64,000 bases of DNA from a virus, in IMG/VR virus record IMGVR_UViG_3300043449_002191, positions 93,342 through 157,341 of that record; one strand, given 5' to 3'. Numbering within the stretch: the stretch's first letter is position 1; each line of letters starts with the position of its first letter. Both the position numbers and the translations under genes were made by a program. The notes under the pieces are model-generated. The model did no database searches and was not told the origin of the DNA. It saw nothing but the letters and a program-made list of their open reading frames with translations. Shown here piece by piece: positions 30,126-64,000 of this stretch.

Positions 30126-31832
30126 ATGTCACTGAAAATCGATGGTATTGCCGCATCATCTGCTTTAGATAGTTCTGGTGAAATACTGGAAATAGAAGGC
30201 TTAGATATCTCCGATTTTATCGAAGGTCGTGGTGTACTTAACTGGGAGCATGATAATAAGCATGAAAATACAGTTGGTGCCATAGTCTATGCTAAAAAGA
30301 TTTTACAAAAATCTGACTGCGAAAATGATCGTCAACGTAGGTATTGGGACTCAGTAAAAAAGCCTTTTGTGTATATAATCGGCGAACTTTTTGATGACGA
30401 AGATCATCCAGGCGCAATTGCTATTGCAGCTATGATCAGATATTATTCTAAAAAATCAGAAAAAATGCTAGTTGGCTTTTCAATTGAAGGTTCTACTCTA
30501 GAACGTGATGGCAATATGCTTAAACAGGCTATTGCTAGGCGCTGCGCTATTACCATTAAACCTGCCAATAAAACTGCTATTGCCGACATCTATGAAGATG
30601 AAAAAGTCAAAAAGCTTATGAATGACATGGAAAAATCCCAATCAGACGTACAGCTATTTGAAGTAGACTCTTTTACATTAGAAGATAAAGAAGTTCCATA
30701 TTCCCCATACATGGAAATCCATAAGGCTATTGAAGATCTAAACAAAACATTGACTGCAGGCATGGGTAATGTAGCTCCAAGCCAGTTAGTAGGTGGAGCA
30801 GCTTTAGTTCGTGAGCAATTAAGCGGAACTCAAAAAAATAAGGTAAAAGCCGCCCTAAGAGACTGGGATAAAAGAACGCCCTTAAAACAAGTAATTAAAA
30901 ATGTATTGCCAGAAATTGGCGATAAATATGTAGAACATTTTACTGATTTAGCCGAAGACTTGATGCTTAAAAAATCTATGCAAAATCCAGCAGTTAGATT
31001 ATCATCTAAGCATGGGCATACTCCTCTCCATCCAGAGCAAAACGAATTAATTGAAGGTCTTCAAGTTACACAAGACTTAGATAAAATGCCAGTATTTAAA
31101 CCAAAACACGACCTTTACGGTTCCGCTATATATAAAGGTAAAAACGACAAAGGTCAAACAGTTTTAATTAAAAGCCCAGAAAAAGATAAACCAGAAGACT
31201 TACACAACTTTGCTCAAAAAGCTTCTATGTACCATGGAATAGCAAAAAGCGTTTTTGGTCTTGGCGACAATGTGCCTGAAACAGCAGCATTTAAACATGA
31301 AAGCTTAAAAAACTCAAATAAACATCATGGAGATTGGTTCCAAGCTATTGAGCATAAAAAGGACACTAAGACTCCATTGGAAGACCAAAAAGGGTATAAC
31401 GCCGTTATTGCTACACCTGAAGGTCAAGATAAGCTTTCAAAGCTATTGATAATGGACCATATTTTAGGTGGTAGAGATAGACACGCCGGAAATATTTTAT
31501 TTGATAAAAAAGGCGAGCTGCACCTTATCGATAATGATAGATCTTTTGATCATTACGACTCAGACTTTTTACCTTCAGAAACACACGAAGAAATAATGCC
31601 TGAAAATGGATTTTTAATTTCCGATGATACCGCAAATTGGATTAAAAAAGTTGACCCAAAAATTTTACTTAAGACTATGCTAGACCATGGTATACACCAT
31701 GATACCGCAAAAAAATCCATTTTGAAGCTAAAAGCTTATCAAAAAATGGCAAAAAAGGGATATAATATTAAAGATTTAATAGATAAAGCTCATATGTCTG
31801 TGAGTGCTGCACCCAAGGAAAAGGTTAAGTAA
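30126..31832 (+). CDS. prohead protease fused to a capsid-arm copy and a HipA/PI3-4K-like kinase
   Basis: N-terminal GIAAS..LDSSGE, NWEH, GFSIEG, AITIKPAN (HK97-type protease); C-terminal DHILGGRDRHAGNIL...LIDND. Confidence 0.85.
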   Translation: MSLKIDGIAASSALDSSGEILEIEGLDISDFIEGRGVLNWEHDNKHENTVGAIVYAKKILQKSDCENDRQRRYWDSVKKPFVYIIGELFDDEDHPGAIAIAAMIRYYSKKSEKMLVGFSIEGSTLERDGNMLKQAIARRCAITIKPANKTAIADIYEDEKVKKLMNDMEKSQSDVQLFEVDSFTLEDKEVPYSPYMEIHKAIEDLNKTLTAGMGNVAPSQLVGGAALVREQLSGTQKNKVKAALRDWDKRTPLKQVIKNVLPEIGDKYVEHFTDLAEDLMLKKSMQNPAVRLSSKHGHTPLHPEQNELIEGLQVTQDLDKMPVFKPKHDLYGSAIYKGKNDKGQTVLIKSPEKDKPEDLHNFAQKASMYHGIAKSVFGLGDNVPETAAFKHESLKNSNKHHGDWFQAIEHKKDTKTPLEDQKGYNAVIATPEGQDKLSKLLIMDHILGGRDRHAGNILFDKKGELHLIDNDRSFDHYDSDFLPSETHEEIMPENGFLISDDTANWIKKVDPKILLKTMLDHGIHHDTAKKSILKLKAYQKMAKKGYNIKDLIDKAHMSVSAAPKEKVK

Positions 31833-32437
31833 TGAAAGTCTATGTCATTAAAAGCGTAAACTCAGACATCCCCTTGGCTGAAATCAGAACTGATGGCAGA
31901 TCTGTTGATTTTATTGTAGATAATACTGAAGGCCAACTTCCATCAAAAGTGGGCAATAGCCTAGAAGCGCTTAAAAAATACCTAAAGTCTTCTAGTATCT
32001 ACTTAGAAGAACCAACTCAGCCTACAGCACATTTAATCAGATACGTTCTATCAAACGGAGATGTTGCTGAAATCACTACTGACGGTAAAACCTGCCTTTT
32101 AAATGGTAACCTGCTAACTGAGCAAGAAAAATATGCTCTATTTGATGCTATTAAAAGAAAAGAAATTCAAGTATCTAGAAAATCTGATGATATACAACCA
32201 GTTTTACCTAAAGCGCAAAAGCCTTTAGAGGAAATTAAGCCAAAACAACTGCACCCTACTATTCAATCTCAAATGAAAGAATACTTTGAAGAAAAAAGAA
32301 AGCAATTGGAAAAATCAACACCAGATATGGATCATGAGATTGAAGATTCTGTGGCTAAGATGGCCGGAGACAGACAAGAAGTAGGCTTTGTAAGGGACCT
32401 TTTGTATTGGTTAAAGCACGGAGGCAATCGTGAATAA
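31832..32437 (+). CDS. hypothetical head-module protein
   Basis: ORF coupled to the protease gene. Confidence 0.6.
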   Translation: MKVYVIKSVNSDIPLAEIRTDGRSVDFIVDNTEGQLPSKVGNSLEALKKYLKSSSIYLEEPTQPTAHLIRYVLSNGDVAEITTDGKTCLLNGNLLTEQEKYALFDAIKRKEIQVSRKSDDIQPVLPKAQKPLEEIKPKQLHPTIQSQMKEYFEEKRKQLEKSTPDMDHEIEDSVAKMAGDRQEVGFVRDLLYWLKHGGNRE

Positions 32438-35400
32438 GACTTTTTTTGACGAAAACACCTCTCCACAAGAGCTTGAATCTACAATAAATCAATATATTGA
32501 TACACCAAAAGATAGTCACCCAGAAGACTTATCAGAAAAGGTATATGAAGCTGCCGCACATCCTCAAATGCCAGCAGCGCATTTATCTAAACTTTACCTT
32601 CATAACATGGCAAAACCAGAAAATACTCCAGAAAATATAGGCAGCCATGAAAGTATAGACTCAGATTTAACTGAAAAAATACTGCAAAATCTAAATACAC
32701 CTAAAGATATACATGAGCAGCACCTTGCAGCTACTCATTCTTCTAATAGCGAGCATCATAACTATGCTATTTCAAATCCTGCAGTATCTAATGATGTTAT
32801 TCAGTCATTTTTAGAAAATAGAGCAAAATCGGAATCTGCTTGGAATATGCCAGCAGAAGAAAATGTCCATCCCGATGTTGGGTTTAATCTATTTAATAAA
32901 GGCCGTGAACTTAAAGACATTGATCCAAAGCATTCAGAAGCACTTAAAGAATATGGATTAGATATTCTACAAAATTCTAAAAAACATACAGACGAAACAT
33001 TAAAGAGAGTAGTAGATGCTTATCATAAAGGCCAGCCATTAAATAGCGGCTTTTTGGGCAATCTTATCTCAAAAAATAAAAATTTGACAAAAGACCAGTT
33101 AAATCAAATTCACAATAAGCATACATCATCTGAAGAGTTTGATCCTGATTATGGTAGCAGTGTTATTTCTTCTATAGCAGAGCATCCTAATACTGATCCA
33201 TCATTACTATCACTAATCGCTAACGATAAAAAGTATAAAAACCATGCATCTGATGCTTTAAAAAATCCTGCGCTTCCTATGGAAGTATTCAATAATAAAA
33301 TTTCAAAATTACCTAAAAGAGGAAATGAACATTACGATCATAATGATGAAATTACTGAATCTTTACTGCAAAATCCAAATATAACAAAAGACCAAGTGTC
33401 AGAACTTTTTAAAAAAGGGTTTAAATCAGCGTTAAATCATGAAAAAACTGATGAGTCATTAATTGAAAATCATTGGAATAGCTCTGACAAAAGCGCAGAT
33501 GCTGCGAATAAAATTTTGCGAACAAAAAACTTGCCTGAAAGTGTCTTAAAAGAGCTTGTTAATCATAAAAATCAAGACGTAGCAATTGAAGCGTTAAATC
33601 ATAAGAATGCTACAGAAAACGTAGTAAATGAAGGTTTAAAAAGAAAAGCTAAAGCAGTACAAGAAGAGGCAGCTAAGCACCCTCTTGTAAAAGATAGAGC
33701 TATTACTGAAAAGCTAAAAAATAAATCAGTAAACGCCTCTACTATAGCTTCTGATAATGATTATAAAGAAAAGTTTGATAAACTTTCCGATTTGGATAAA
33801 TCTAATCTAATTAACCACTTCCATGAAAAGCTCTCAGGCTCAGACATTGATGCAATTGCTAAGAATTCAAAAGAAAAGAAGTCTGATGTATTATTGGCAA
33901 AAAGATTCTTAGCTAGGGATAAAAGTGTACCACAACACATCAAAGACCATCATTCAGATGAGTTTTTTGATATGTTTACTAAAGAATTTGGAACTAATTC
34001 AGATATAAACGTAGATAGAGATGATTTACACAAAAGGCAGTTATTCCAAACCGCAAGAGACCTTTTATCAGATGAAAATCCAACAGCGCAGAAAAGATTG
34101 CTAGAGCATACACCTTTGATGTCAGCGTTAGGCCCTGATGTGGCATCTAAATCTAAAAATCCTGATTTTATTAAAAAGCTAGTCAAAAGAGCTAAAGACG
34201 CTGATGGTGAATCAATAATAGATCGCTGGGGGCACCCAAGACCATATAATTCGTCTGACTTAAGATTATCTGTATTAAAAAATCCAAATCTAAGCCTAGA
34301 AGATCTTAAAGGTCACTTGTCCGACCCGTCTTTTAATGATTTTGATAAATATGCTTTGAATAATATTATGGATAAAACAAAAGGTTCCCCAGAAAAACAA
34401 GCAGAAACACTAAGTTTTTTAAAAAATTTAAACAGACCAGAAGTAAACAAACACCTGCTGTTAGGCAGTTTTTTGACTGGAAATGACCAAGAATCAGCAT
34501 TTGAAAACTTAGAGTCAAAATACGATAAAAGTGAATTTTTAAAGGAAAATGCAGACAAAATTTCTCCATCGTTAGCTGACAGAATTTTAAGTGGCGAATT
34601 TAATGATAATTACACACAAATGAAACATAATCTTTTTAGTGGATTAGAAAATCCCCCTAAAGAAATTGAAGATAAAGTTTTAAATCATTTAGACGAACTT
34701 TCTAAAGGCCCTGTAGCCGATTTAACTGATTCGTTAAACAGTATCTCTAATAGTTTTAAAAAATCTGAAAGATGGAAAAATAACGCTAAAGAGCTGTCAG
34801 CATCAAATCCAACTTTAGCTTCTCAAATGTATTCTCATCATATTGATGTGCTGCCAGCAGAAAAACAAAAAGATGCGATTAGCAACCTTGAAGCTTATGA
34901 AGATTCATTGGGCGTAAGTCCAGAACAAAAAGATATGAGAAAAAAAGCTTTTTGGAAAGCTCAATTGCTAAATATAAATAGGTTAGGTAGAGTATTTGAA
35001 AAAGGAGAATTAGATCATTTAGCAGATCTGCAGAGTACAGATGAAGACGAAACCGCTCTTTCTATCAAATCCCTTTTATTAAACAAACGATTATTGTCAG
35101 ATAACAAAGCTAGCGAAATAGTAGCCAAAGACCCTTCTTTATTTGAAGATTATTATAACTCATTACATAAAATAGATGATAAAATTAAATCTATTGATAG
35201 CGTAATAAATAATCCTAATTCAGATAAAAACTTGCTTTTTAAAGCTGTAGGCAAAATAAATCCTACACATTTATCAGAATATAAAATTGATAAAGATAAC
35301 CAAAATGAAGTTGCAAAGAAATTAGCCAATAAAATTGCTGATTTAAGTAAACTTCAAGATCAAAAACACTTACAGACAGCAGTTCAGGGGCTTACACGCC

Positions 35401-38400
35401 CTATTAAAGGGCATTTAACTGAGGGTGTTTCTGAATCTTTAATTAAAAAAGCTGCCGATGAAATCTTAAAAAACGATAAAATACCCCAAGATAAAAAAGT
35501 AAGAATGTTGTCAGCAGTTTCTTCTGCTATGGATGTCAAAGGGGTAACACATCAAGCAACTTCTAAATTTTTAACTAAGGCTGTATCTGAATCAGAAGAT
35601 GTCAATACACTGCTACCTGCTATCCAGTCTTCTACATTTGATTTTGCAACAAAAACTTCTATGGCTAAAAAAGCAAATGAAATGCTATCAAACCCAGAAG
35701 CTATAGCTAAAGTTGATACCCAAAAATTGCTAGACTTTACTACTAATGCAAACTGTACGGCAGAAGTTAAAACTTTGGTAGCTAACAAAGCAACTGAAGA
35801 ACTTTTTCAAGAACAAGACCTTGATAAACAAGTAGAAAAAGCTGAGAAATTAGCATCAGCGCTAAACTACTCATCAAACGATAGCAGCTTTAATTCTGAC
35901 GCTAGAATTTACCATTTAGCCGAACATCCAAATCCAGAAGTAAGAATGGTCGCCTATAAACAAATGAGATCCACTCTTTCTTCAAACGGAATAGAAAGCA
36001 ACATTGAACTATACAAGAATATGCCAGATGATATTAAGCTTCATCCAATTGATATTGATCAAAATGAAGCAAATAATGCTGATTTTGTAGAAGCATCGAC
36101 TAAAGGCTGGAAATTAGATACATTAATTGTTAATGGTGGAGTTTTAAACAAAGAAAACTCAAAAGTAATGATTAATAGAGCTATTGAGTCCGAAGATCCT
36201 GCCCATAAAAGATTGGCACTTCAATCTTTAATGTCATCTGTGTATACAGACAAAAATGACCTAACTAAACTTGCCAGAGCATCTAGCGAAGAAGACCTAC
36301 TAAAGTCTCTTTCAATAGTCCAAAATCCATTCCAACTAAATGCACATTTTGCTTTATCTGAATTGATGGATAAAGTAGATCAAAAAATGGAAAATCCAGA
36401 GATGGTAATTCATGGTGCTAAATTTTTAGACAAAGAGCATACAAAAAATGTACTTTCTATCCTAAGCGATATTGCCAGTAATATAGGAAAAACTATATTT
36501 GATGAAGGCACTTACGATATTAACGCAAAAAACGAAGTGTATGAAGAGGTTATTAACAAGCATACGGACCATTCCAATACTATTTTGAATAATCTTAAAA
36601 ACCAAATTTTAGAAGAACCATCTGAAACTAAAGTTAAAGTAAATAGTTTAATCAATAACCTAAGAAATATTGTTGCGAATAGTGGGTTAAAGTTTAGCAA
36701 AGAAACTCACAATAAGCTAATGGAGTCCTATAATTTACATAAAGACCTTTATGAAAAATTGGGTACAAGATTTAACACTCCAGTTCTATTAGGTGGAATT
36801 ATTGAAAAAACAGAAGGATTAAATTCCGAAGATTGGAAATCTCTTTTTGAAAAAACTCCTGAATCCAAATATTTTATTGGACATAGATCATCTATAGGAA
36901 CAGACATTTCAGATCATCTATCTTTTTCTAAAGAGGATCAAAATTGGAGTCATTCACCTGTAGCTGTTCAATTTGCTTTAGATAAACTTGATTCCCAATC
37001 TTTAGATAAGCATGGCAAAAGACTTTTTACCGAGGCTTTAAATGCAACAAATGGAAGTCCTAATCAAAAATATGTTATTGAGACTGGTTTAAGTAAAATG
37101 GGCGATAGGCTTAATCATAAAGACTTATTGGACATAAGAAAAGCTTTACCAGAGTTTAGTCAACATTTTGATACCGTAGCTATTAAATCTGGTGCAGGCG
37201 GAAAAGAGCTTTTAGCCGATTCAGTCAAAAAAGTGGAAGAACTTGCTAAAAACAAAGAACAATCTAGCGTTGAGCTTTTATCTGCAATATGCAGAAGTCG
37301 CCACTTAGACGAAAATCTAGCAAATAAAATGTTGGAAATTCATGATAATCACCCAGAAGTAATGGAAGAACTCGCTAACAATAACTCAGTTCACCCTAAC
37401 GTATTGCTTAAAATTCAAAACGAAGCCGCTAAATTGTCACCAAGAACATCTAAAAAGATTGTGGACGCAGTTATTTCAAACTCAAATACTCCATTTGATG
37501 TTGTTAAAAAGGCATTTGAAACTACTCAAAAAGAGTATAAACCATATTTCATGAGCAATACTTCATTTAACCCTGCGCTAGATAACTCTAAATGGGGACC
37601 TAGCCTATTAAGAGAAATGCCAGTAGTCTTACCTGAAGGGCTTCAAAACGTAGATGGGAACTCTTTAAAGCAAAAAACTTCAGAATTTTCTACCGAGTAT
37701 TCAAATAAACGTAAAAAAGCCCTTAATGTAATGGCAGCTATACCTGATACTGGTATTAACTGGGTTGAATTTAAGCGACAAAATCCGTCACTAGAGGCTG
37801 GATTACCAAAAGAAGTTAAAGATATTTTTACTAGAAATGCTAACACTCCAATAACAAAAGAGAATATGGTATCTCTGGTAAAATCTATGGATTCAGAGCA
37901 AAAGAAAAGAGAGTACCACTTAGCGTATTCATCTTGGAGTGGGGTACAAACTCATACTGGAGGCAAAAATCTTGTTATGACTTTAAATCTATCTCAGCAA
38001 ACTGAAGAAGAGCTTAAAAAAGACCCCAAAGTATTTGCTTTATATAAAAAAGTTACTCAAATTGCAAATGGAATATCTGGTAAATCTATAGGAGCGCACC
38101 CAACAACACCATATGCTGTATCTTGGTCTAGAGTTGATACTGATCAAAACGGTGAAGCCTGGGTAATTGAAGAGCTTCAAGCAGATGCTGTACAAAAATT
38201 TAGATCTAATTTCAGAAGAATACTCAACAATATGGCCTCTGGGTCAAATATTGATGGCCATAGTATAACTTCAGAAGAAATGAAATCAATGGTTAAGACT
38301 ATTGAAAAAACTTTTGATGGATGGGACCGAGCTACTATAAATGCAGTTATAGAAAATGCAAAGGCTCATGGAATTAAAAAGCTTTATATGCACGGTCTTG

Positions 38401-38636
38401 GAATCAGAAGCTGTATGTCTGGTGGAGAAATCGGCGGTCCCAAATACACTAAAGACTATATTAACCCAAATATTAAAAGGCTTTATGACCAATTGCCTCA
38501 AGAGTATGGTTTTTCAAAGTGTAAATACTCAGATTACCCCAAAAATAACGCAAAAAGATTCAACGATGATCTTAAGAGCAGAGAATTAAATGATGATTGT
38601 TGGGTACTTGACTTAGAGGAGAAGCCTAAAGCCTAA
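32430..38636 (+). CDS. giant 2068-aa helical-repeat polyvalent-type protein
   Basis: Degenerate [LI]A.[HN]PN.P repeats; C-terminal globular domain with WSRV...WVIEELQAD...AKAHGIKKLY; GTG start with GGAGG. Confidence 0.7.
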   Translation: MNKTFFDENTSPQELESTINQYIDTPKDSHPEDLSEKVYEAAAHPQMPAAHLSKLYLHNMAKPENTPENIGSHESIDSDLTEKILQNLNTPKDIHEQHLAATHSSNSEHHNYAISNPAVSNDVIQSFLENRAKSESAWNMPAEENVHPDVGFNLFNKGRELKDIDPKHSEALKEYGLDILQNSKKHTDETLKRVVDAYHKGQPLNSGFLGNLISKNKNLTKDQLNQIHNKHTSSEEFDPDYGSSVISSIAEHPNTDPSLLSLIANDKKYKNHASDALKNPALPMEVFNNKISKLPKRGNEHYDHNDEITESLLQNPNITKDQVSELFKKGFKSALNHEKTDESLIENHWNSSDKSADAANKILRTKNLPESVLKELVNHKNQDVAIEALNHKNATENVVNEGLKRKAKAVQEEAAKHPLVKDRAITEKLKNKSVNASTIASDNDYKEKFDKLSDLDKSNLINHFHEKLSGSDIDAIAKNSKEKKSDVLLAKRFLARDKSVPQHIKDHHSDEFFDMFTKEFGTNSDINVDRDDLHKRQLFQTARDLLSDENPTAQKRLLEHTPLMSALGPDVASKSKNPDFIKKLVKRAKDADGESIIDRWGHPRPYNSSDLRLSVLKNPNLSLEDLKGHLSDPSFNDFDKYALNNIMDKTKGSPEKQAETLSFLKNLNRPEVNKHLLLGSFLTGNDQESAFENLESKYDKSEFLKENADKISPSLADRILSGEFNDNYTQMKHNLFSGLENPPKEIEDKVLNHLDELSKGPVADLTDSLNSISNSFKKSERWKNNAKELSASNPTLASQMYSHHIDVLPAEKQKDAISNLEAYEDSLGVSPEQKDMRKKAFWKAQLLNINRLGRVFEKGELDHLADLQSTDEDETALSIKSLLLNKRLLSDNKASEIVAKDPSLFEDYYNSLHKIDDKIKSIDSVINNPNSDKNLLFKAVGKINPTHLSEYKIDKDNQNEVAKKLANKIADLSKLQDQKHLQTAVQGLTRPIKGHLTEGVSESLIKKAADEILKNDKIPQDKKVRMLSAVSSAMDVKGVTHQATSKFLTKAVSESEDVNTLLPAIQSSTFDFATKTSMAKKANEMLSNPEAIAKVDTQKLLDFTTNANCTAEVKTLVANKATEELFQEQDLDKQVEKAEKLASALNYSSNDSSFNSDARIYHLAEHPNPEVRMVAYKQMRSTLSSNGIESNIELYKNMPDDIKLHPIDIDQNEANNADFVEASTKGWKLDTLIVNGGVLNKENSKVMINRAIESEDPAHKRLALQSLMSSVYTDKNDLTKLARASSEEDLLKSLSIVQNPFQLNAHFALSELMDKVDQKMENPEMVIHGAKFLDKEHTKNVLSILSDIASNIGKTIFDEGTYDINAKNEVYEEVINKHTDHSNTILNNLKNQILEEPSETKVKVNSLINNLRNIVANSGLKFSKETHNKLMESYNLHKDLYEKLGTRFNTPVLLGGIIEKTEGLNSEDWKSLFEKTPESKYFIGHRSSIGTDISDHLSFSKEDQNWSHSPVAVQFALDKLDSQSLDKHGKRLFTEALNATNGSPNQKYVIETGLSKMGDRLNHKDLLDIRKALPEFSQHFDTVAIKSGAGGKELLADSVKKVEELAKNKEQSSVELLSAICRSRHLDENLANKMLEIHDNHPEVMEELANNNSVHPNVLLKIQNEAAKLSPRTSKKIVDAVISNSNTPFDVVKKAFETTQKEYKPYFMSNTSFNPALDNSKWGPSLLREMPVVLPEGLQNVDGNSLKQKTSEFSTEYSNKRKKALNVMAAIPDTGINWVEFKRQNPSLEAGLPKEVKDIFTRNANTPITKENMVSLVKSMDSEQKKREYHLAYSSWSGVQTHTGGKNLVMTLNLSQQTEEELKKDPKVFALYKKVTQIANGISGKSIGAHPTTPYAVSWSRVDTDQNGEAWVIEELQADAVQKFRSNFRRILNNMASGSNIDGHSITSEEMKSMVKTIEKTFDGWDRATINAVIENAKAHGIKKLYMHGLGIRSCMSGGEIGGPKYTKDYINPNIKRLYDQLPQEYGFSKCKYSDYPKNNAKRFNDDLKSRELNDDCWVLDLEEKPKA

Positions 38637-38658: not shown

Positions 38659-39096
38659 ATGAATTTAGATGAAGCATCTTTAAAAATTGCTAGCGAGCTT
38701 GTAGCTGAATCTACAAAGCTTGAAAAGGCATTGCCTCCTAAACTTGCATATCGTTTTCGCCGCTGGCTACAAAAATTTAAATACAACAAAAGTCCAGAAG
38801 AACTCAATGCGATTAAAAAAGCTTTAAATGAAGCTATCGAAAACCTTTCTCCAGCACTTAAAAAGAATGAGGCTAGGGCATCATTTTTTGATTCTGGAGT
38901 TATTAAGATGGAATTTGGCGGTTCTGTAGATAAAAAAGTAAAAGAAGCTGCTATGGCCTGGGCTAAAAAGAATAATCTCAAAGTATTAGAAGCATCATTG
39001 GAAAAAAGCTCAGATAGTAATAGCTCTATGGTTTTAGGTAAAGAGGCTCAGCCCTCATTAGATTTTTGCGTAAAAACGATAACTTGGAAGTGCTAA
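38659..39096 (+). CDS. hypothetical head-module protein
   Basis: ORF after the late motif; LEKA and LEKS sites. Confidence 0.65.
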   Translation: MNLDEASLKIASELVAESTKLEKALPPKLAYRFRRWLQKFKYNKSPEELNAIKKALNEAIENLSPALKKNEARASFFDSGVIKMEFGGSVDKKVKEAAMAWAKKNNLKVLEASLEKSSDSNSSMVLGKEAQPSLDFCVKTITWKC

Positions 39097-39722: not shown

Positions 39723-40589
39723 ATGAATCAGCTATATACAGATCAAGACTTGGATGCTATCATTGCTTCTGTCGAAGAGGCTTTGTCTAAGGCTGAAGTA
39801 TTGGCAAAATCTTCTCTCAGAAAAGATGGCCAAGAAGACGAAGAGCAAGAGCAAGAAGCTCCTGCTGCTGATCAAGCTCCCGAAATGCAAGAGCAAGCCC
39901 CTGCTCCTGATGCTCAAATGGATGAGCAACAAGCACAGGCCCCATCCGAAGAAGCTCCTGAAGAAGCACCTGCTCAAGATGAGCAAGCTGCCCCTGAAGA
40001 AGCACCTGCTCAAGATGAGCAGATGGATGAAGCTCAAGCCGATCAATCACTAGAGCAAGAAGCTCAAGGCGACGAGGACCAAGCCCTTACGGATGAGGAA
40101 TTGGCTCAGATTTATGGAAGTATGGACCCACAGGAATTGGAGCGCCATTATTCTGTTATCCGCCAAATGATTGAACAAGCTTATGCAAAAGCGGAAGCTG
40201 ATGAGTCCGAAGAGGATGAATCCAAGGAAGAAGAAGAAAAAGAAGAAGATGAAAAAGACGAAAAAGAGAGCATGGAAAAGTCAGAAAAGATTTCTGCTTT
40301 AGAAAAGCAAATCGCTGACCAGAACAAAGCTCTTGAAAATATTGCAAAAGCGTTTGAAATTATTGCAAAACCTCAACGCAAAGCAGTTACTGAAATCGAT
40401 TTCATCAGAAAATCAGAAGCCGAAAGCTCTGATAAAACAATGACATTGGAAGAAGTTAAAGCTAAAGCTAATAAACTTGCTCCAGCGTCACTCACCAAGT
40501 CTGAAAGAGATCAAGTGAACTCTTTTATGCTTTACGGTGAAGGAAAAGAACAAATTGAAAAACTAATTAAGTCTAAGGGAGGAAACTAA
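39723..40589 (+). CDS. capsid scaffolding protein
   Basis: Acidic Glu/Gln/Ala-rich, directly before the major capsid; many xxK-S/A sites. Confidence 0.75.
   Translation: MNQLYTDQDLDAIIASVEEALSKAEVLAKSSLRKDGQEDEEQEQEAPAADQAPEMQEQAPAPDAQMDEQQAQAPSEEAPEEAPAQDEQAAPEEAPAQDEQMDEAQADQSLEQEAQGDEDQALTDEELAQIYGSMDPQELERHYSVIRQMIEQAYAKAEADESEEDESKEEEEKEEDEKDEKESMEKSEKISALEKQIADQNKALENIAKAFEIIAKPQRKAVTEIDFIRKSEAESSDKTMTLEEVKAKANKLAPASLTKSERDQVNSFMLYGEGKEQIEKLIKSKGGN
39957..40021 (+). repeat. 36-bp-period in-frame tandem duplication (PEEAPAQDEQ)
   Basis: CCTGAAGAAGCACCTGCTCAAGATGAGCA at 39957 and 39993. Confidence 0.85.
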
Positions 40590-40590
40590 A

Positions 40591-41979
40591 ATGAATGACC
40601 TAGTAAAAACACTAGAAACATTAGTTAAGACCTTGGAAGCAGGTAACTATAACGTAGCTCCTAGTCAGCTCGTCCAAGGTTCTGCTCTCCAGATCGAAAA
40701 CTTGGAATCTGTCATGCACAACACTACGTTTGATGACAGTCACATCAAGCTTCAGAAGCTTTTTTCTGTAAAGAAAGCTAAGAGCTTGCTTGTGCAATTT
40801 AACCGTCAATTGTCTTATGGACGTTTTGGCGGATCTGCTCAGCGTGAAGGCGCTGTAGGTGACATCAATGTTGGCGACTACGTTCGTGCGACTGTCCCTA
40901 TGTGCTTCTACTCTGCAGTAACACGTGTAACAGTTGCTGCCAATATGATGGAAACCATCGATGGCAAAAAAGCTGAAGACCGTGAAGCAGATAACATTGC
41001 AATGAAAATTGCAGGGGACATCGAATTTGACTCCTTTAAAGGTAAGTCAGATTTCTCTAACGCAGGGGTATTCGATGGAAACCCTCTTGCTATGCCAGAG
41101 CTTCCTAGTATGCTTGGTGTTGACGCTCAAATCCGTCAATCGGATATGATCGTTTCTACTCAAGATCTTATGTTTGCAGCTTTTGGTTCAAATCAAAGTG
41201 TTGTTCTTTCTAAGAACGGCGCTCTTGATCAACCACACATCGAAGACCTTGCTCTTCGCAGCCGCATGAACATGGGTAAAGCTGAAACTCTTTTTATTGA
41301 CCCTGTTGTTCTTTCTGGATACAACAAGGCAGTTGCCCTTGGATCAGGATCTAACGCTATTCAACGTATCGTTTTAGCTGGTTCTGCTCAAGACGCTTCT
41401 GGAGCTGATCTTCGTCGTCAATGGGTTTCTAACGGAACTGTGACTCTTGAAGATTCTCGTTTCCTTTCTGGAAAAACTGCTCCTCAACGTCCTATGATCG
41501 GTTCACCTGCTGCTCCTGCTACTGTTGCTGGAACTGCAGCTCCAGGCGGAATTATCCCTGCTGGCGATCATGTTTACGTAGTTACTGCTGAAAACGAAAG
41601 AGGCGAAGGCGTTGCTAAAGCTTCTGCTGCTGTAACAGTTGCTGCTGGTGAAAAAGTTGATCTTGTTATCGCTGGTGTTGCTGGCGCTACTCATTACAAC
41701 GTATACCGTGGCGCTTCTGCTGCTTCTGCTAAGTTTATCGGTCGTGTTAAAGCTGATGGTGCTGCAAGTGTTACTTTTGTTGACCTTGGAAACAAAGCTC
41801 CAGCTTTCGTAACTGGTTACCTTATCCAAAAAGATACTTGGGGATTCCATGAGCTTGCTCCATACTCTCGTATGAAGCTTGCTATCAGCGATTTATCAGT
41901 TCCTGAAGCTCACTTCAGATTCTTGTCTCTTGCTGGATATCAACCACGTAAGAACGTTATCTCTGATAACTTGTTCTAA
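40591..41979 (+). CDS. major capsid protein (Herelleviridae-like, with Ig-like insertion)
   Basis: N-arm K-TLEAG...P...GSALQIENL; position after scaffold; insertion YVVTAENERGEG...YNVYRG; followed by a terminator. Confidence 0.88.
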   Translation: MNDLVKTLETLVKTLEAGNYNVAPSQLVQGSALQIENLESVMHNTTFDDSHIKLQKLFSVKKAKSLLVQFNRQLSYGRFGGSAQREGAVGDINVGDYVRATVPMCFYSAVTRVTVAANMMETIDGKKAEDREADNIAMKIAGDIEFDSFKGKSDFSNAGVFDGNPLAMPELPSMLGVDAQIRQSDMIVSTQDLMFAAFGSNQSVVLSKNGALDQPHIEDLALRSRMNMGKAETLFIDPVVLSGYNKAVALGSGSNAIQRIVLAGSAQDASGADLRRQWVSNGTVTLEDSRFLSGKTAPQRPMIGSPAAPATVAGTAAPGGIIPAGDHVYVVTAENERGEGVAKASAAVTVAAGEKVDLVIAGVAGATHYNVYRGASAASAKFIGRVKADGAASVTFVDLGNKAPAFVTGYLIQKDTWGFHELAPYSRMKLAISDLSVPEAHFRFLSLAGYQPRKNVISDNLF

Positions 41980-49171: not shown

Positions 49172-49469
49172 AGTAGTCTCCTTTAAGGCAAATATAAACC
49201 CTAGCCTGGATATACCAGCTAATCAGTCTCATCCAATCTACGATGAGTACGGGTCATTAGTTGGAGCCTTCAATATCAAAGAAGAAGGCGCAGTGATTGG
49301 GTTTTTGTCTACAAAAGGGTACGAGCTATCATTAGAAATATCTCTAGGCGAACCCTTTTACATTACATTAAATCCTGGGGACGATGGAAAAATAGAAAAA
49401 GGTCTAGTAACTAGAAATAAAATTGGTATTAATTCAGCAAAAATCTCTAAAATTGAGGAGTCGTTATGA
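49164..49469 (+). CDS. hypothetical protein
   Basis: GTG start, coupled ORF. Confidence 0.5.
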   Translation: MNRVVSFKANINPSLDIPANQSHPIYDEYGSLVGAFNIKEEGAVIGFLSTKGYELSLEISLGEPFYITLNPGDDGKIEKGLVTRNKIGINSAKISKIEESL

Positions 49470-54167: not shown

Positions 54168-55172
54168 ATGTATATATTAAAAATAGAAGACCATAACGGT
54201 AACGAAAAAACCTACAAGATAAACTCCAAAGAAGATCTGCGCCCACTTTACGATGAGTACCCAAATCTTGAAGATGTAATGATGCATTCACATTCTTTAC
54301 AAGAAGGCTTAAATAATATAGCCGATTACCTTTCAACGGGATACTCTACAGCAACTGTTGAATCAACTGAGTTGACCAAAGGTGTAAAGTCTGCATTAGC
54401 TGCACTAGGTATCGCTCTAGGAGCAGCCGTCCCTACAGCCCATCACTCCATGAGCGAAGCTGCTGTACCTAAAATGCAATCACAATTAAAACTAGATGAT
54501 TTTGGCTCTAAACCAGAAGATAAATTCCTCTGGTCAGTAATGCAGGTTGAAAGCTCAGGCGGTAAAAATCTAAAGCATCAACCAGTAAAACATGGACCCT
54601 TAAAGGGGCAAGTAGCCATGGGTCGATGGGGGCTTTTAAAGCCAACTACTGATGAAATGATTACTCGCATGGATCGAGAAGGCAAAGCCACACATGAGCT
54701 TAAGTCTATCCTCAAAATGGATAGAAATACTGCTGAAAAATACTTAAGAAAAAATCCTCACGTAGAAACTCACATAGCAAGATATATGGCTAGGTTGGTA
54801 TCTAAGCGATATAATGGAAATCTACACATGATGGCATGGGCATGGAATGCTGGTCATAATACTGATAAAAGTAAAATTACTAATTCAGTGCTTTTAAATT
54901 CTGATTATGTAAGTAAGTTTAAAAATGCCCATAAACTTAACCCATTCAGAGACCAAAGATCAATTGCCTCTGTTATGAAATCCCAAGGCACTTCTGACCT
55001 AGTTGTTAAAATAAATGAGTGGTTCCAGAAAAGGCTAGATAATGCTAATAAGCCTCTAAGGGATAGTACGTTTGTTCAAGACAAAGGTCCGGTTAGAGAT
55101 AAAGAATTAGATAAAAAACCATCTGATGATTTAATGGAAAAACTAAAACAGCAAATTAAAGGCAAGACCTAA
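54168..55172 (+). CDS. lytic transglycosylase (SLT/lysozyme-like) domain protein
   Basis: MQVESSG (catalytic Glu), AMGRWGL, AWNAGH, YV. Confidence 0.7.
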   Translation: MYILKIEDHNGNEKTYKINSKEDLRPLYDEYPNLEDVMMHSHSLQEGLNNIADYLSTGYSTATVESTELTKGVKSALAALGIALGAAVPTAHHSMSEAAVPKMQSQLKLDDFGSKPEDKFLWSVMQVESSGGKNLKHQPVKHGPLKGQVAMGRWGLLKPTTDEMITRMDREGKATHELKSILKMDRNTAEKYLRKNPHVETHIARYMARLVSKRYNGNLHMMAWAWNAGHNTDKSKITNSVLLNSDYVSKFKNAHKLNPFRDQRSIASVMKSQGTSDLVVKINEWFQKRLDNANKPLRDSTFVQDKGPVRDKELDKKPSDDLMEKLKQQIKGKT

Positions 55173-55182: not shown

Positions 55183-55674
55183 ATGAAAATAGATGCAAGC
55201 CAAATAAAAGAAAAATGTATCGCAGGGTATTCTAACTCCTCGCCAATAGTCTATGTATATAGCCATGGAGGACTTCATGCATTTTTCAAAAAAGAAGATG
55301 ATGGAGCAATAGTAGCTATTGGAGCCGCCCCTCATAAAGGTATTGCCAAGTTCTTAGCCTTAAAAAAAGATCCAGATATTAAATGGGAAAAAGACTTCAT
55401 TGAGGAAAAGAATCTATCTAAATCAGAAGAAGACATATTCCTTCAACTTAGATCAGTAATTTTTTCCAAGACTTTGGAAATTAAAAAGTCTGAGTCCACT
55501 ACTTATTATCTTTATGAAATAAGCAAAAAGACAATCGAAATCTTAGATAAAGCAGAAATTGAAAATAGAGTCAAAAATAGTGCAGTTGATCTATACTCAC
55601 TCGTAAGAAATACAGACCTTAGTCAAGAGCCTCAACTCCTTATCGACACAAGTTTTGTCAATGGGAGAGTGTAA
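55183..55674 (+). CDS. hypothetical late protein
   Basis: LSKSE and IKKSE sites. Confidence 0.65.
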   Translation: MKIDASQIKEKCIAGYSNSSPIVYVYSHGGLHAFFKKEDDGAIVAIGAAPHKGIAKFLALKKDPDIKWEKDFIEEKNLSKSEEDIFLQLRSVIFSKTLEIKKSESTTYYLYEISKKTIEILDKAEIENRVKNSAVDLYSLVRNTDLSQEPQLLIDTSFVNGRV

Positions 55675-56996: not shown

Positions 56997-58850
56997 ATGA
57001 ATTCATCAAAGGAATTACTTAAAGCTATAGTTGGCAAAGATGGTCTTGAGACTTTAGAAAAAGCCATCTTTAAAAAGAGGACAAATGCTGTCATTGATCC
57101 TCTTGAATACTATTTGCCTTTACTAGTAGTCCCTAGAGCTATTCTTTCATGGTTAATTCAAAATATTAAGCCAATGAAAATCGATGAGCTTAAAACCTTA
57201 GAGTTTCCAAATAATCCAGATATTAAAATAGAAATACAGAAACAGGACGTAGATCAGTACCGTGCTGAATTTGTAGAAAAAGGAAGAGTCATACACTCTT
57301 TTGAAAAACAAAGTTTACCAGCAGTCTCTGGACACTTAATGACTGTAGGCGAACTCTACGACTCTTTTTCATCTGAGAAAGATAAGGCTGATTCTGGCTC
57401 AAAGGAAGAGCCTAAAACAGATGAAGTCCCGTCTTTAGATGTAGCTAGAAGTATAATGGCCATTGGCCGTATTAAAATTCCCAATGAAGATCCAGAACAA
57501 GTTAAATGGGTTACATCTCAAAGTAATGTAAAAGAATTATCTGCCGTTATCGGTAAACTCGTAGATGCATTAGTTGCTAAATCTTCTAAAAAAGAAGAAA
57601 CTTTAGATAAAGCTGCAATAAAAGAACAAGAAGATCAAAACATCGAAGAGACAAAATTACCTGAAACTAAGAAGCCAGCCCCTAAAGAACAATACGATGA
57701 AGTTAAAGTAGCAATTCCAAAAGTAACTGATTATATAAAAGATATTACTCCAGAGCCTAAAGAAGCTCCAGAATCAAAAGCTGCATCAAATGCAACTATA
57801 ACTGTTTCCCAATACCTTAGAAGAAGATCTAAGGGGATGACTAAATCAGAGATCTTAGCTAAGCCTTACCAGTCGGAAGCTCAACGCCGCTGGGCTCATA
57901 CAGAAGCTGGAACAAAAGCTTTAGGTGGAAAAGAAAAAGTTAAGCATTGGGATAAAGAATCTAAAGGCAAAGATTTACCTGAAAAAGTAAATAAAGCTGA
58001 AGAAATAAATTGGGAAAATAAAATAAAAGGTAAATCTGGCTTTAATACCGAAGTTGTAGGCGAAGATGATGATTACATTGAAATAGAAGCTACTCATCCT
58101 GAAACAGGTGCAAGAGTTGGTTATGCCACTGTTGATAAACAGCATCCAGAAGACTTTAATTTTGCTAGAGTTGGAGACATAAAAGTAAATTCTAAATGGC
58201 AAAATAATGGAATTGGTACAGATATTTACACCCATGCTTCAAATTATTTAAAAAAGCCATTAAAAATGAGCCGAGATATTCAACCAGCTGCTAGAAAATT
58301 ACATGAAAAATATTCTTCATTTATACAAAAAGCTGAAATGCCTGGAGGAGCTGCACAGCCTAAAAAGCCTGCTATGCCGCAGCCTCCAAAACCACCAGTT
58401 CCACCAAGTAAAAATCCAGCAGGTGCCGCAGCTAAACAAGCTCAGCAATCCGCTAAAGGTAAAATGGCTACCCCAAAGCCTCCAAAACCAGCAGCAGGCT
58501 CATTAGGACCTAAGCCTCCTAAAGTTGGGGCAATGACTAAAAATGAATACTTTAAAAAGAAGCTTAGTAAGTCAGAAGTTACAGAGTCAGAATTATACTC
58601 TCATTGCGAAATCTGCGGAACTTCTCAGTTTAAGAAAACAGAAAAAGGGCCTGAGTTTAGCCCATGTGCCTGTTTTTCTGTAGTCAAAAAAGATGAAGAA
58701 GGCAACTCTAAAAAGTTTGTCAATGTATTAAGAAAAAGCGATGGAAAGTTTGACTTAGAATTTTCTCCAGAGTCTGACCCAGAAACAGTTAAGTTATTTT
58801 TACTTTCAATGAAGGCAAGACTCTTAATTAAAAAGAACCACGGATTGTAG
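56997..58850 (+). CDS. polyprotein with GNAT domain, Pro/Lys linker and C-terminal Cys4 domain
   Basis: VNSKWQNNGIGTDIY (GNAT motif A); PYQSEAQRRW module; CEIC...CAC. Confidence 0.7.
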   Translation: MNSSKELLKAIVGKDGLETLEKAIFKKRTNAVIDPLEYYLPLLVVPRAILSWLIQNIKPMKIDELKTLEFPNNPDIKIEIQKQDVDQYRAEFVEKGRVIHSFEKQSLPAVSGHLMTVGELYDSFSSEKDKADSGSKEEPKTDEVPSLDVARSIMAIGRIKIPNEDPEQVKWVTSQSNVKELSAVIGKLVDALVAKSSKKEETLDKAAIKEQEDQNIEETKLPETKKPAPKEQYDEVKVAIPKVTDYIKDITPEPKEAPESKAASNATITVSQYLRRRSKGMTKSEILAKPYQSEAQRRWAHTEAGTKALGGKEKVKHWDKESKGKDLPEKVNKAEEINWENKIKGKSGFNTEVVGEDDDYIEIEATHPETGARVGYATVDKQHPEDFNFARVGDIKVNSKWQNNGIGTDIYTHASNYLKKPLKMSRDIQPAARKLHEKYSSFIQKAEMPGGAAQPKKPAMPQPPKPPVPPSKNPAGAAAKQAQQSAKGKMATPKPPKPAAGSLGPKPPKVGAMTKNEYFKKKLSKSEVTESELYSHCEICGTSQFKKTEKGPEFSPCACFSVVKKDEEGNSKKFVNVLRKSDGKFDLEFSPESDPETVKLFLLSMKARLLIKKNHGL

Positions 58851-58858: not shown

Positions 58859-60028
58859 ATGTCGAACCAAAATATGATCTGGGTAAGCATTGAACTAGAC
58901 GCTCTCTCTGACAAAATGCGTGAATATGCCGATAAGGGTTACTTTAGAGAAGCAAAGGATCTTGACGCTACATCTAAGGCATTAAGTGAAAAATTAAAAT
59001 CAATGATCGGTCAATTTGGCGGTACATTACATTTAGCCATAGTTGATAGATATGCACTAGAAATCCCTATTTCACTAGCTGAACAGCTCAATAATTATCT
59101 AATCCCTATGGTTGAACAATACTCAACAAAAGTCGCAGTAGGCATTGGTCTTAATATGGAAGAGGCTGCTAAAGCTGCCAAGATTTCAGCATATTCCGGC
59201 AAAATAGAATTATTTGACCCATCCGTACATCAATTTGAAAAAGCAGAAGAGCTTTATCTTGATCCGACAGAAGAATTTTCTCCAAATATTTATGACAGAT
59301 CTGATCCAGAATCCCCTACACCTAAAGGTAAAGAAAAAATCAAAGAAGTCCCCCCAGCAACATTCCTTGACCCTAATACTGCAGCACAATTAGATATGGC
59401 AGCAGTTCAAGCTATTTTACAGCAGCTTATGGGACCAGCACAGCAATCTCAACAACAAATGCAGCAACAGATGCAACAACAGATGCAACAGCAGCAAGAG
59501 CAAGACCCTAGAGACTTAAGAGAAGCTTTAAACGGTGGGCAAGTTGAAGGCTATAGTCCAGAAAAATCTCAACAAGAAAAAGAAACTGCTAACTCAGAAC
59601 CGGAAGATAATGAGCCACAGCAGGCACAACCAGAAGAAAAAGACGAAAGTACGGATAAGCTTACTACTTTACTTGGCACTATTAACGATAAAATGCCTCA
59701 ATTAATGGAACTTCACGACAAAAACCCAGAAGCCTTCAAAAAGATTCTTGGATTAGTAAATAAAGTTGTCGCAATGGCTAAAGACAAAAAAGCTAAGGTA
59801 GAAAAGTCTGAAATAGACAGTATGACTGAGCAATTAAATAAAGCCATTAAAGGTCGATATCCAGTAGGTACTATTAAAAATAGAAAAAAGAAAGTCGTTG
59901 TTAATGGTAAAGCAGTTTGGAGATCTGTCATTTCTGGAATGGTCAGAGATAATCAAGGTCAGCCTATTTCCGTGAAGTCTCACAATGCTAAAGCTGATGA
60001 CGGAACGGATGGCATGAGAAATGAATAG
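58859..60028 (+). CDS. late protein with degenerate mCpol/GGDEF-like palm domain
   Basis: WVSIELD...FGG.L....D...KVAVGIG...EA..A......GK pattern; Gln-rich linker. Confidence 0.45.
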   Translation: MSNQNMIWVSIELDALSDKMREYADKGYFREAKDLDATSKALSEKLKSMIGQFGGTLHLAIVDRYALEIPISLAEQLNNYLIPMVEQYSTKVAVGIGLNMEEAAKAAKISAYSGKIELFDPSVHQFEKAEELYLDPTEEFSPNIYDRSDPESPTPKGKEKIKEVPPATFLDPNTAAQLDMAAVQAILQQLMGPAQQSQQQMQQQMQQQMQQQQEQDPRDLREALNGGQVEGYSPEKSQQEKETANSEPEDNEPQQAQPEEKDESTDKLTTLLGTINDKMPQLMELHDKNPEAFKKILGLVNKVVAMAKDKKAKVEKSEIDSMTEQLNKAIKGRYPVGTIKNRKKKVVVNGKAVWRSVISGMVRDNQGQPISVKSHNAKADDGTDGMRNE

Positions 60029-60926: not shown

Positions 60927-60928
60927 TT

Positions 60929-61972: not shown

Positions 61973-61976
61973 TAAC

Positions 61977-61986
61977 CCTAATCTTA
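61977..61986 (+). promoter_or_regulatory. CCTAATCTTA candidate late promoter
   Basis: Exact intergenic motif; ATG 7 nt later. Confidence 0.8.
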
Positions 61987-61993
61987 TGTTAGT

Positions 61994-64000
61994 ATGAAAA
62001 AGATTGCGATTATTGCTATTCAGCATCCCACAGAAGCAAATTTATACTTGCATGGCCTTAGAGCTGATAATGCAAAATGGGCTTTACCAGGAGGACATTT
62101 TATTCCTGGAGAGCTTCCAGATGAAGCAGCCAATCGAGAGCTTGAAGAAGAAACAGGCTTAAAGGGTATAAAATTAGATAAAGTCGCAGAATCTACTACT
62201 AGTACTCATAATTTACATTTATATCACCATAAATGCACATCTAGTTTAAATTTAAATTCTCAAAATGACCCAGATCAAGAGTTTGTTACATTCAAATGGT
62301 TAGACCCAAAAGAACATGAGAATTTACACATACCTAAAGAAAATAATATACTTATACATCATTTGAAAAATAGCGAAATAAAACCATTTGTTTTTCATGA
62401 ATCTGATCAAGAAGATGAAGTTGATGATGGACACGACCATTTTGGTTATCCAATTAAAGGTTTTATTAAAAAAACTGAAAACATTACTTTTGAGTCTTTA
62501 AAAAAAGGTAAAAAAGATATTTTACAGGTTTTAGGCGCAGAAAGCATAAAACCTGAGCATAAAGAATATATTGATTGGGCACAAAAATTGCCAAATTCAA
62601 ATTGGCAAACTTGGGCCACAAAGCATTATAAGCAAAAGCCACAGGATTTTACACCTGAAATTAAACAAAAAATAGAGCATTTTGCTGGCTCTCAGCATAT
62701 TCCTAATATTGCAAAAGTAACATTTGATAAAAGTCATGATTTACATTCAGGATTAAACTTACTTCATTCCGCTGAACAAGATTACACTAAAAAACTTTCT
62801 GAAAACACTAACCTAGTTACGCCAACACAAAAAACTCAAAAAGTTGTTAACGGTGCTACTAAACCAAACAGACATTGGTTTGGATTAGGAGTTGGTAGCT
62901 GTAAAGCTGAAGGCAAAGCCATGGGGCATTGCGGAAACAGGCCATCAAAAGTAGATGGGGACAAGGTGCTGTCCTTAAGGACAGAGCATAAAGTTGGAGA
63001 TAAAACATTCCATGAACCCCACGTAACTTTTATTTCAAACAATGGGTTTTTAGGTGAAATGAAAGGTCGAGGAAATCTAAAACCTACAAAAGAATACCAT
63101 AAAGATATAGTTGAATTGTTAAAAAATCCTCAAATAAAAGGTATTATTGGTGAAGGGTATAAACCTAAAAATAATTTTCATTTTTCTCATTTATCTACAG
63201 AACATCAAAATGAAGTTTTAGCTCATAATCCTAATTTAATTACTGACACAACATCTAAAGAAAATATAACTAAAATATTAGATACTAAATTACCTGTAAA
63301 ATATCTTCACTTAATTGGTATAATAGCTAAAAATCCAAACCTTGATCCTGTACATCATGCTAAGCTAGTTAATACTAAAGATTTTTCTGTTAGATCATCA
63401 ATAGCTAAAAATCCAAACCTTGATCCTGTACATCATGCTAAGCTAGTTAATAGTAAAGATTCTTATATTAGATCATCAATAGCTGAAAATCCAAACCTTG
63501 ATCCTGTACATCATGCTAAGCTAGTTAATGATGAGGAGTCTTATGTTAGAAGAGCAATAGCTTCAAACCCAAACCTTGATCCTGTACATCATGCTAAGCT
63601 AGTTAATGATGAGGAGTTTTCTGTTAGAAGAGCAATAGCTTCAAACCCAAACCTTGATCCTGTACATCATGCTAAACTAGTTAATGATGAGCAGTTTTCT
63701 GTTAGATCATCAATAGCTGAAAATCCAAACCTTGATCCTGTACATCATGCTAAGCTAGTTAATGATGAAGTTTTTGCTGTTAAATCATCAATAGCTTCAA
63801 ACCCAAACCTTGATCCTGTACATCATGCTAAACTAGTTAATAGTAAAGATTCTTATATTAGATCATCAATAGCTGAAAACCCAAACCTTGATCCTGTACA
63901 TCATGCTAAGCTAGTTAATGATAAAGCTATTGATGTTAGAAAAGCAATAGCTTCAAACCCAAACCTTGATCCTGTACATCATGCTAAACTAGTTAATGAT
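61994..64000 (+). CDS. Nudix hydrolase + PcfJ-like domain + 26-aa helical repeats (partial, runs off window; absent from ORF track)
   Basis: Hand translation: MKKIAIIAIQ...PGGHFIPGELPDEAANRELEEETGL (full Nudix box); EGKAMGHCG...VLSLR...PHVT...EMKGRGN.KP; I found no stop. Confidence 0.85.
   Translation, partial: MKKIAIIAIQHPTEANLYLHGLRADNAKWALPGGHFIPGELPDEAANRELEEETGLKGIKLDKVAESTTSTHNLHLYHHKCTSSLNLNSQNDPDQEFVTFKWLDPKEHENLHIPKENNILIHHLKNSEIKPFVFHESDQEDEVDDGHDHFGYPIKGFIKKTENITFESLKKGKKDILQVLGAESIKPEHKEYIDWAQKLPNSNWQTWATKHYKQKPQDFTPEIKQKIEHFAGSQHIPNIAKVTFDKSHDLHSGLNLLHSAEQDYTKKLSENTNLVTPTQKTQKVVNGATKPNRHWFGLGVGSCKAEGKAMGHCGNRPSKVDGDKVLSLRTEHKVGDKTFHEPHVTFISNNGFLGEMKGRGNLKPTKEYHKDIVELLKNPQIKGIIGEGYKPKNNFHFSHLSTEHQNEVLAHNPNLITDTTSKENITKILDTKLPVKYLHLIGIIAKNPNLDPVHHAKLVNTKDFSVRSSIAKNPNLDPVHHAKLVNSKDSYIRSSIAENPNLDPVHHAKLVNDEESYVRRAIASNPNLDPVHHAKLVNDEEFSVRRAIASNPNLDPVHHAKLVNDEQFSVRSSIAENPNLDPVHHAKLVNDEVFAVKSSIASNPNLDPVHHAKLVNSKDSYIRSSIAENPNLDPVHHAKLVNDKAIDVRKAIASNPNLDPVHHAKLVND
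63323..64000 (+). repeat. 78-bp in-frame tandem repeat, at least 9 units
   Basis: Units start at 63323, 63401, 63479, 63557, 63635, 63713, 63791, 63869, 63947; encodes IA[KES]NPNLDPVHHAKLVN plus 9 variable residues. Confidence 0.95.

Follow-up and report, generated by a model that had tools for sequence, protein, structure and literature searches.

A lysine motif as a candidate joint between enzyme modules of head-region polyproteins in a virus related to Myxococcus phage Mx1

Genes of the head region

The window analyzed here is the final 64 kb (64,000 nucleotides (nt), positions 93,342 to 157,341) of the 157,341-bp virus contig IMGVR_UViG_3300043449_002191, in which the prohead protease, the scaffold, the major capsid protein, and a set of multidomain late proteins carry one short lysine motif. 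The contig, referred to as G000, is probably circular because its ends overlap by 68 nt. From position 24189, the + strand encodes a terminase region, portal, MuF-like gene, prohead protease, scaffold, major capsid protein, and neck genes. The nearest cultured phage is Myxococcus phage Mx1 (capsid protein identity 54.5%), a virulent myophage that forms plaques on Myxococcus (PMC6070905) and has a GC content of about 50%; Mx1 and five IMG/VR relatives (G001-G005) were used for comparison. The capsid match to SPO1-like phages is restricted to the N-terminal 150 residues (about 31% identity), and by this comparison, which considers capsid protein similarity only, the phage appears far from the Herelleviridae and is not filed in that family.

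A sequence-only reading of the window had proposed that the pattern [LMIVF]-x-K-[SATG] (the loose motif) is cut by the prohead protease and possibly serves as a packaging tag for modular enzymes. A strict motif, [LMIVF]-x-K-[SA]-E, was also counted here, and expected counts were taken from composition-preserving shuffles of each protein. The head genes that carry the motif are as follows, with a slash marking a predicted cut and aa denoting amino acids.

30094-30102, + strand: late-promoter candidate CCTAATCTT before the protease gene
30126-30605, + strand: prohead protease catalytic domain, assemblin fold, with His42 and Ser119 (PHROG head maturation protease, E 1.7e-12)
30738-30815, + strand: LNK/T site, whose K207 is invariant in 60 homologs, then an internal copy of the capsid N-terminal arm
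30966-30977, + strand: LKK/S site parting the protease from its C-terminal cargo, where homology to kinase-less protease orthologs stops
31023-31832, + strand: PI3/4K-HipA-like kinase fused to the protease (Pfam PF00454)
38659-39096, + strand: 145-aa late protein with three motif sites, a probable substrate
39723-40589, + strand: scaffold with seven motif sites (7 vs 1.0 expected)
40591-41979, + strand: major capsid protein (PHROG), with a predicted maturation cut LVK/T at 40621-40632, after Lys13

Head protease and probable capsid maturation site

The protease residues H42 and S119 are invariant in 60 homologs. The model of the catalytic domain matches herpesvirus assemblins and, weakly, T4 gp21; these matches came from the fold search, and a sequence search of the protease against the PDB returned nothing relevant. 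The density of motif sites rises from 1.8 per 1000 residues in the catalytic domain to 15.7 in the linker that follows. Among the three protease sites named in the sequence-only reading, LNKT is conserved in 58 of 59 rows and LKKS lies where homology to kinase-less orthologs ends, whereas MEKS is conserved in 0 of 52 rows. The proteases of Mx1 and SPO1 have the same internal capsid arm, which is therefore ancestral; this copy may tether a fragment of the protease to the shell or build it into the shell.

The N-termini of the capsid proteins of the clade, Mx1, SPO1, and Bacteroides phage DAC19 align in register, with L-x-K, then T or A, followed by a conserved arm. The SPO1 site LNK/A aligns with VVK/S of Kayvirus, and LVK/T of G000 is in register through SPO1. 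The Kayvirus capsid chain in PDB 9ROW has 439 aa, which is 24 shorter than in 5LII, and begins at Ser25 directly after VVK (Lys24/Ser25). The scaffold of SPO1 is likewise enriched in the motif (11 vs 1.3 expected), as is its protease (8 vs 1.5). The alignment with the start of the 9ROW chain and the abundance of the motif in the SPO1 scaffold make it most likely that the assemblin-fold head protease cuts at this motif, and cleavage after its lysine is predicted from these alignments as very likely. The A511 capsid protein is reportedly cut between Lys23 and Ser24. A Kayvirus matrix-assisted laser desorption/ionization (MALDI) paper contains no statement on cleavage. The proteases of T4, phiKZ, and SPN3US follow the same type of three-residue P3-x-P1 rule, but with Glu (PMC9026906, PMC10052503). 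The presence of the motif in core head proteins therefore makes it an ordinary feature of SPO1-like heads.

In the portals of Mx1 (L002:8615-10675) and SPO1 (L058:5783-7306), motif sites also occur close to the N-terminus and hint at a propeptide; the signal is weaker in the portal of G000 (27126-29210).

Enrichment of the motif in head-region proteins

The motifs cited in the sequence-only reading are all present: MAKSEDLEKG (52392-52421), FGKSEELNKA (52743-52772), VNKAEE (57987), IQKAEM (58323), LTKG (54372), VMKS (54972), MEKS (30627), LNKT (30738), LKKS (30966), LKKG (62498, between the Nudix and PcfJ-like domains as described there), LVKTL (40600 and 40621), and six scaffold sites within 39783-40574. 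In the named proteins, the strict form is well above chance (13 vs 1.0 expected), whereas the loose form is only about two-fold enriched (49 vs 22.6 expected, 2.2x, compared with 1.1x in non-structural proteins). The strict motif is also frequent in four head-region proteins that lie wholly or mostly past the window end (9 vs 0.9) and is depleted in non-structural proteins (1 vs 5.9).

Because the strict form was picked after seeing the data, the real test is its replication in relatives. With head regions set by position, from portal to sheath, the observed and expected counts of the strict motif in seven genomes are 27/3.4 (all head-region proteins of G000), 17/3.9, 21/3.2, 14/2.2, 12/2.2, 16/2.8, and 16/1.0, and the five IMG/VR relatives and Mx1 thus have 12-21 strict sites per head region vs 1-4 expected. 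In the remaining proteins of the same genomes, the strict motif is at or below expectation.

The residue after the lysine is narrower than first proposed: Ser or Gly is preferred and Ala is weak, but Thr is not enriched at module joints and is found mainly at the capsid arm. The loose pattern also returns false matches, such as VLIK at the ATP site of a kinase and an unconserved FAKG within the second kinase, and an apparent enrichment in tail proteins (7 vs 1.9) is partly due to three copies of one repeat. Synonymous codons differ among motif sites, although three sites have identical codons; selection therefore acts on the peptide. Some genomes (G000, G002, and G005) show an excess, among their head-region proteins, of an extended form in which (Y/F)-F-K precedes the site by two to four residues (3 vs 0.2, 6 vs 0.1, and 3 vs 0.2); this form is absent in Mx1 and is a possible docking element.

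Motif-bounded candidate cargo genes

Downstream of the capsid and neck genes, the motif lies at the joints of the following late proteins.

51576-51941, + strand: N-terminal helical region of an 860-aa polyprotein, site-rich, with folded helices in the model
51942-52391, + strand: unassigned module (aa 123-272 of the 860-aa protein), missing in most orthologs
52392-52421, + strand: double-site linker MAK/SEDLEK/G, a swap boundary, with predicted local distance difference test (pLDDT) under 50 at aa 267-283
52422-52742, + strand: GNAT module 1 (Pfam PF00583)
52743-52772, + strand: double-site linker FGK/SEELNK/A
52773-54158, + strand: PI4K/HipA/CtkA-like kinase and C-terminal helical domain (Pfam PF00454; weak Foldseek matches to PI4KII, CtkA, and HipA)
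54168-55172, + strand: SLT transglycosylase protein, with the SLT module between LTK/G (54372) and VMK/S (54972) (Pfam PF01464)
55183-55674, + strand: conserved 163-aa carrier-like protein with three strict sites
56997-58850, + strand: 617-aa conserved protein, with GNAT module 2 between VNK/A (57987) and IQK/A (58323)
58859-60028, + strand: core protein, with a degenerate mCpol-like N-terminal domain ending at FEK/A (59234) (ESM Atlas 0.94)
61994-64000, + strand: start of a 1688-aa polyprotein with Nudix, LKK/G (62498), PcfJ-like domain, and 24-aa repeats

The domain calls made from sequence alone were borne out, by Pfam for the PI3/4K-like kinases, GNATs, SLT, and Nudix, and by ESM Atlas features (0.93-0.94) for the PcfJ-like and mCpol-like domains. 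The mCpol-like protein is a different case with respect to function. It had been listed among the enzyme cargo, but none of the seven orthologs keeps the catalytic DGD and GGDD motifs in this domain, and the protein is probably an inactive core protein. An intact mCpol is present as cargo in G005.

The slot on the protease is variable and may be empty or hold GGDEF, ART, or other modules in relatives, and 134 long protease fusions with varied cargo were found. The model of the 860-aa protein places both double sites within or beside linkers of low confidence. Among 30 kinase orthologs, the first 135 aa have 23.5 sites per 1000 aa, compared with 1.4 in the remainder, and this N-terminal helical region is a candidate propeptide or targeting domain. 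Related SLT modules in Mx1 and G005 begin after LxK, and the G001 version of the 163-aa carrier-like protein has a 330-aa module inserted at its first site.

The 1688-aa Nudix polyprotein crosses the circular join into G000:1-3128, where it continues with an HExxH module, an unassigned module, a GNAT, and two more modules. The chain was read across the join on the basis of the 68-nt end overlap and the G001 ortholog, and three further motif-bearing genes follow it past the window end. About ten tandem 24-aa repeats lie at 63320-64000; since the overlap of the contig ends falls within this array, the number of repeats may be an assembly error. The HExxH zincin-like module (L001:159-1121) moves between polyproteins of G000, G001, G002, and G005. 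After an LSK/A site, a 2H phosphoesterase with two H-x-T motifs is encoded at G000:3121-3675, and in G003 and G004 it is fused to Nudix polyproteins. Its Pfam match to the anti-CBASS protein Acb1 is weak (E 0.011) and it has no PDB match; it is a candidate virion-borne enzyme for degrading signals. A 1012-aa motif-rich protein with DUF6321 and GP88 domains lies at L001:3712-6750.

Exchange of modules at the motif

Comparison with relatives indicates that modules are gained, lost, and replaced between motif sites. The 617-aa protein has five IMG/VR orthologs without the GNAT, and in G001 the flanks join at a single motif. The 860-aa protein is represented in most orthologs by a shorter chain of about 600 aa, in which the site-rich N-terminal region runs straight onto the kinase at LNK/A. 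Its closest ortholog (P0271) shares both double-site linkers, between which it holds another module in place of the GNAT; in G000 this swapped-in module is found inside the Nudix polyprotein. The same GNAT is encoded alone after a double site in G005, while a chain in G003 combines Nudix, GNAT, and a 2H-like domain, to which G004 adds a VTC domain. A distant 2470-aa polyprotein occupies the same slot after the neck gene. These replacements are what the sequence-only reading had expected if related phages exchange cargo between conserved sites.

Of 53 homology breakpoints in the cargo of G000, 18 lie no more than 12 residues from a strict site (5.3 expected), and strict sites in this cargo are outside the catalytic cores in all 17 instances (0 inside, p 0.001). 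Together with the low-confidence linkers at the joints, this agrees with the proposed position of the motif at domain boundaries. A set of 120 protease fusions (1000-2000 residues, with kinase, GGDEF, ART, or ART-PolyVal modules) contains 175 strict sites vs 24.5 expected, and breakpoints cluster at the motif (z 11-20), with null results for the Arg and reversed controls. A search with the GNAT core alone, flanks excluded, returned 149 other proteins, mostly polyproteins, in which breakpoints also cluster at the motif (z 25-36; reversed control z 4.5, Arg control depleted). The motif flanks GNAT modules on the N side in 145 of 158 cases and on the C side in 128, compared with 22.6 expected per side, and on both sides in 124. 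Before the module, Leu (75%), Lys (88%), and Gly (95%) are conserved; after it, Phe-Gly-Lys-Ser, and there is no conservation further out. At breakpoints in general, Ser or Gly mainly follows the lysine and P3 is mainly Leu or Phe. The motif-at-joint pattern spans many module types. The comparative evidence strongly supports both the modular-cargo reading and the reading of the motif as a predicted cleavage site.

A late-promoter candidate and possible loading of the cargo

Other copies of CCTAATCTT are located at 26088, 38632, 39221, 50237, 55168, 56579, and 61977. The element occurs 26 times on the + strand of G000 vs 2 on the - strand, and precedes the protease, capsid, neck, sheath, and tail genes as well as operons holding cargo genes; it is a candidate late promoter found ahead of almost every virion and cargo operon. 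It is likewise strand-biased in G001-G004, absent from the G005 stretches, and rare in Mx1. The analysis gave no positive support to the suggestion that the motif itself is a packaging tag, and it revealed no targeting peptide common to the N-termini. Candidate loading elements are the site-rich N-terminal helices and fusion to the protease or to core carriers.

Proposed mechanism and alternatives

The explanation favored here is that the assemblin-fold prohead protease recognizes [LFMIV]-x-K followed by a small residue (S, G, or A, often then E) and would cut after the lysine. Its ancestral role, common with SPO1-like phages, would lie in capsid maturation, in breaking up the scaffold, and in trimming the protease and portal. 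The Mx1-like clade may have reused this site as a standard joint for conflict-type modules, including kinases, GNATs, Nudix, SLT, PcfJ-like, 2H phosphoesterase, ART, GGDEF, VTC, and others, inserted in frame into the protease itself, into a small number of conserved internal head proteins, and into polyproteins that stand alone. These long precursors would co-assemble with the prohead core and be cut into separate enzymes of 10-50 kDa; short spacers and propeptides would leave the head, and the freed enzymes would stay and probably be released at infection. Enrichment, position at module joints, swapping, lysine specificity, an intact protease, and a common late-promoter candidate support this scheme at the sequence level. 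As a whole, it is probably correct, and packaging and cutting of the cargo in the head are likewise likely, while for delivery into the host the chances appear about even.

Several considerations weigh against this explanation. The PDB 9ROW chain was taken as the mature capsid chain from its deposited sequence. The motif is short enough for some matches to arise by chance, and BLAST alignments tend to terminate near any conserved word. Because the flanks of one module family are inherited together, the counts do not represent independent events. By inspection, the motif-bearing proteins of G000 and Mx1 have no shared N-terminal peptide, which leaves the entry of cargo into the head unexplained. 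In SPN3US, 42 head proteins are uncut (PMC10052503), so a protein may reside in the head without being cleaved. For Mx1 and members of its clade, the literature searched yielded neither virion proteomics nor N-terminal data.

The head protease may cut the motif while the modules act in assembly or stay as internal head proteins that are never injected. Clade-wide conservation of the core carriers (the 163-aa, 617-aa, and inactive mCpol-like proteins) resembles that of structural parts, but the modules that are swapped are enzymes of the kinds known from host-conflict polyvalent proteins, their catalytic motifs are intact, they turn over rapidly between relatives, and T4 Alt and internal proteins are ejected (PMC9026906), which makes this alternative unlikely. 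The possibility that the cargo motif is a docking signal for the prohead core or protease and is mostly left uncut draws on the extended (Y/F)-F-K form, on the single decapeptide that serves both targeting and processing in T4 (PMC9026906), and on the N4 virion RNA polymerase, which is packaged unprocessed. It appears improbable, given that the extended form is absent in Mx1, that the cargo motif is the same word as the capsid maturation site, and that sites on both sides of modules and in tandem pairs suit excision better.

Cutting at LxK in the cytoplasm, by free head protease or a cargo metallopeptidase and without packaging, would accord with the conserved HExxH module of the Nudix polyprotein and with the autoproteolysis by MPTase domains proposed for polyvalent proteins (PMC5512222). 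However, the HExxH module is itself bracketed by the motif, and it cannot be the general reader because G004, Mx1, and SPO1 lack it yet keep the motif. In more than 120 homologs, the prohead protease itself carries fused cargo, and non-structural proteins avoid the strict motif, so that cytoplasmic cutting is given little credence. The three sites with identical codons and the K/E-rich linkers would suit a by-product of Lys/Glu-rich helical linkers or DNA recombination repeats without a role at the protein level. This view is already largely refuted by the controls: the 8- to 16-fold excess over shuffled sequences is limited to head-region genes and persists in AT-rich genomes and in Mx1 with its GC content of about 50%, the Arg control is null, and synonymous codons vary. 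It is regarded as extremely improbable.

Relation to known systems and implications

Phage polyvalent proteins are multi-domain, rapidly shuffled late proteins encoded among virion genes, with domains including GNAT, kinase, ART-PolyVal, PBECR, and metallopeptidase-like; they were predicted to be packaged, with processing by built-in MPTase domains proposed (Iyer et al., 2017; PMC5512222). The proteins described here also combine two or more unrelated conflict-type domains in one chain, are shuffled between related genomes, and are encoded among the virion morphogenesis genes of a portal-terminase phage, but an explicit recurring site bounds each module. The polyvalent-protein paper (PMC5512222) places assemblin-like peptidases at C-termini only and has no mention of a linker, whereas here the assemblin protease is N-terminal. 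The HExxH module that could correspond to an MPTase is present in G000 and dispensable across the clade.

T4 gp21, phiKZ gp175, and SPN3US gp245 share with this system an assemblin-fold head protease, the P3-x-P1 rule, multi-site propeptides, a shredded scaffold, and cargo enzymes such as Alt (PMC9026906, PMC10052503). As expected for processing of this type, one short motif is common to the capsid propeptide, scaffold, protease tail, and candidate cargo. However, these enzymes cut after Glu, at (L or I)-x-E or (S or A)-x-E, and remove terminal propeptides from single proteins, whereas the conserved residue here is Lys and a single chain would be divided at internal sites into several enzymes. 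T4 proteins are directed by a 10-residue targeting sequence at their N-terminus (PMC9026906), unlike the motif-bearing proteins here. The head module of SPO1 and Kayvirus is similar in having a homologous capsid protein, a K/S or K/A site, a motif-rich scaffold, and a capsid-arm copy in the protease; SPO1 differs in its 256-aa protease and compact neck region without long polyproteins.

Polyvalent proteins and head-protease processing in T4 and phiKZ are thus already known, and the new part is the lysine-coded linker used module by module, for which no description in this lineage was found in the limited collection of literature searched. On the most far-reaching reading, which is somewhat less than evenly likely, the widespread Mx1-like clade would have a plug-in system that loads any domain placed between two LxK/S or LxK/G sites of a head-region gene, cuts it out with the maturation protease, and injects it as a free enzyme. 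The virion would then carry a swappable kit of first-strike anti-defense and host-takeover enzymes. The motif-bounded design would offer a testable answer to how unrelated domains on one polyvalent chain become separate activities, predict exact mature ends for dozens of uncharacterized modules, and provide a rule for finding domain boundaries and candidate virion-delivered anti-defense proteins in the clade. Since tryptic proteomics hides Lys-specific cuts, such processing may have gone unnoticed. The cultured phage Mx1, whose protease, NUDIX polyprotein, and kinase bear the same sites, allows a direct test. As part of the far-reaching reading, protease-coded, viral-style polyproteins could be a general, convergent strategy of tailed phages, with the linker following the specificity of the resident head protease.

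Other features of the region

The neck genes (strict motif 0 vs 0.4 expected) and a 2068-aa repeat protein (32430-38636), in which the motif is enriched neither here nor in four relatives, were rejected as substrates. The latter, a helical-repeat protein, is conserved in five close relatives and absent from G005 and Mx1 at that position; a polyprotein of G005 contains its C-terminal domain as an internal module. A single match among genome contigs, to a contig in a Saccharibacteria metagenome-assembled genome, was not taken as host evidence. By sequence inspection only, two ClpP-like genes (48294-48905 and 49466-50233) lie between the capsid and neck genes and are retained in several relatives.

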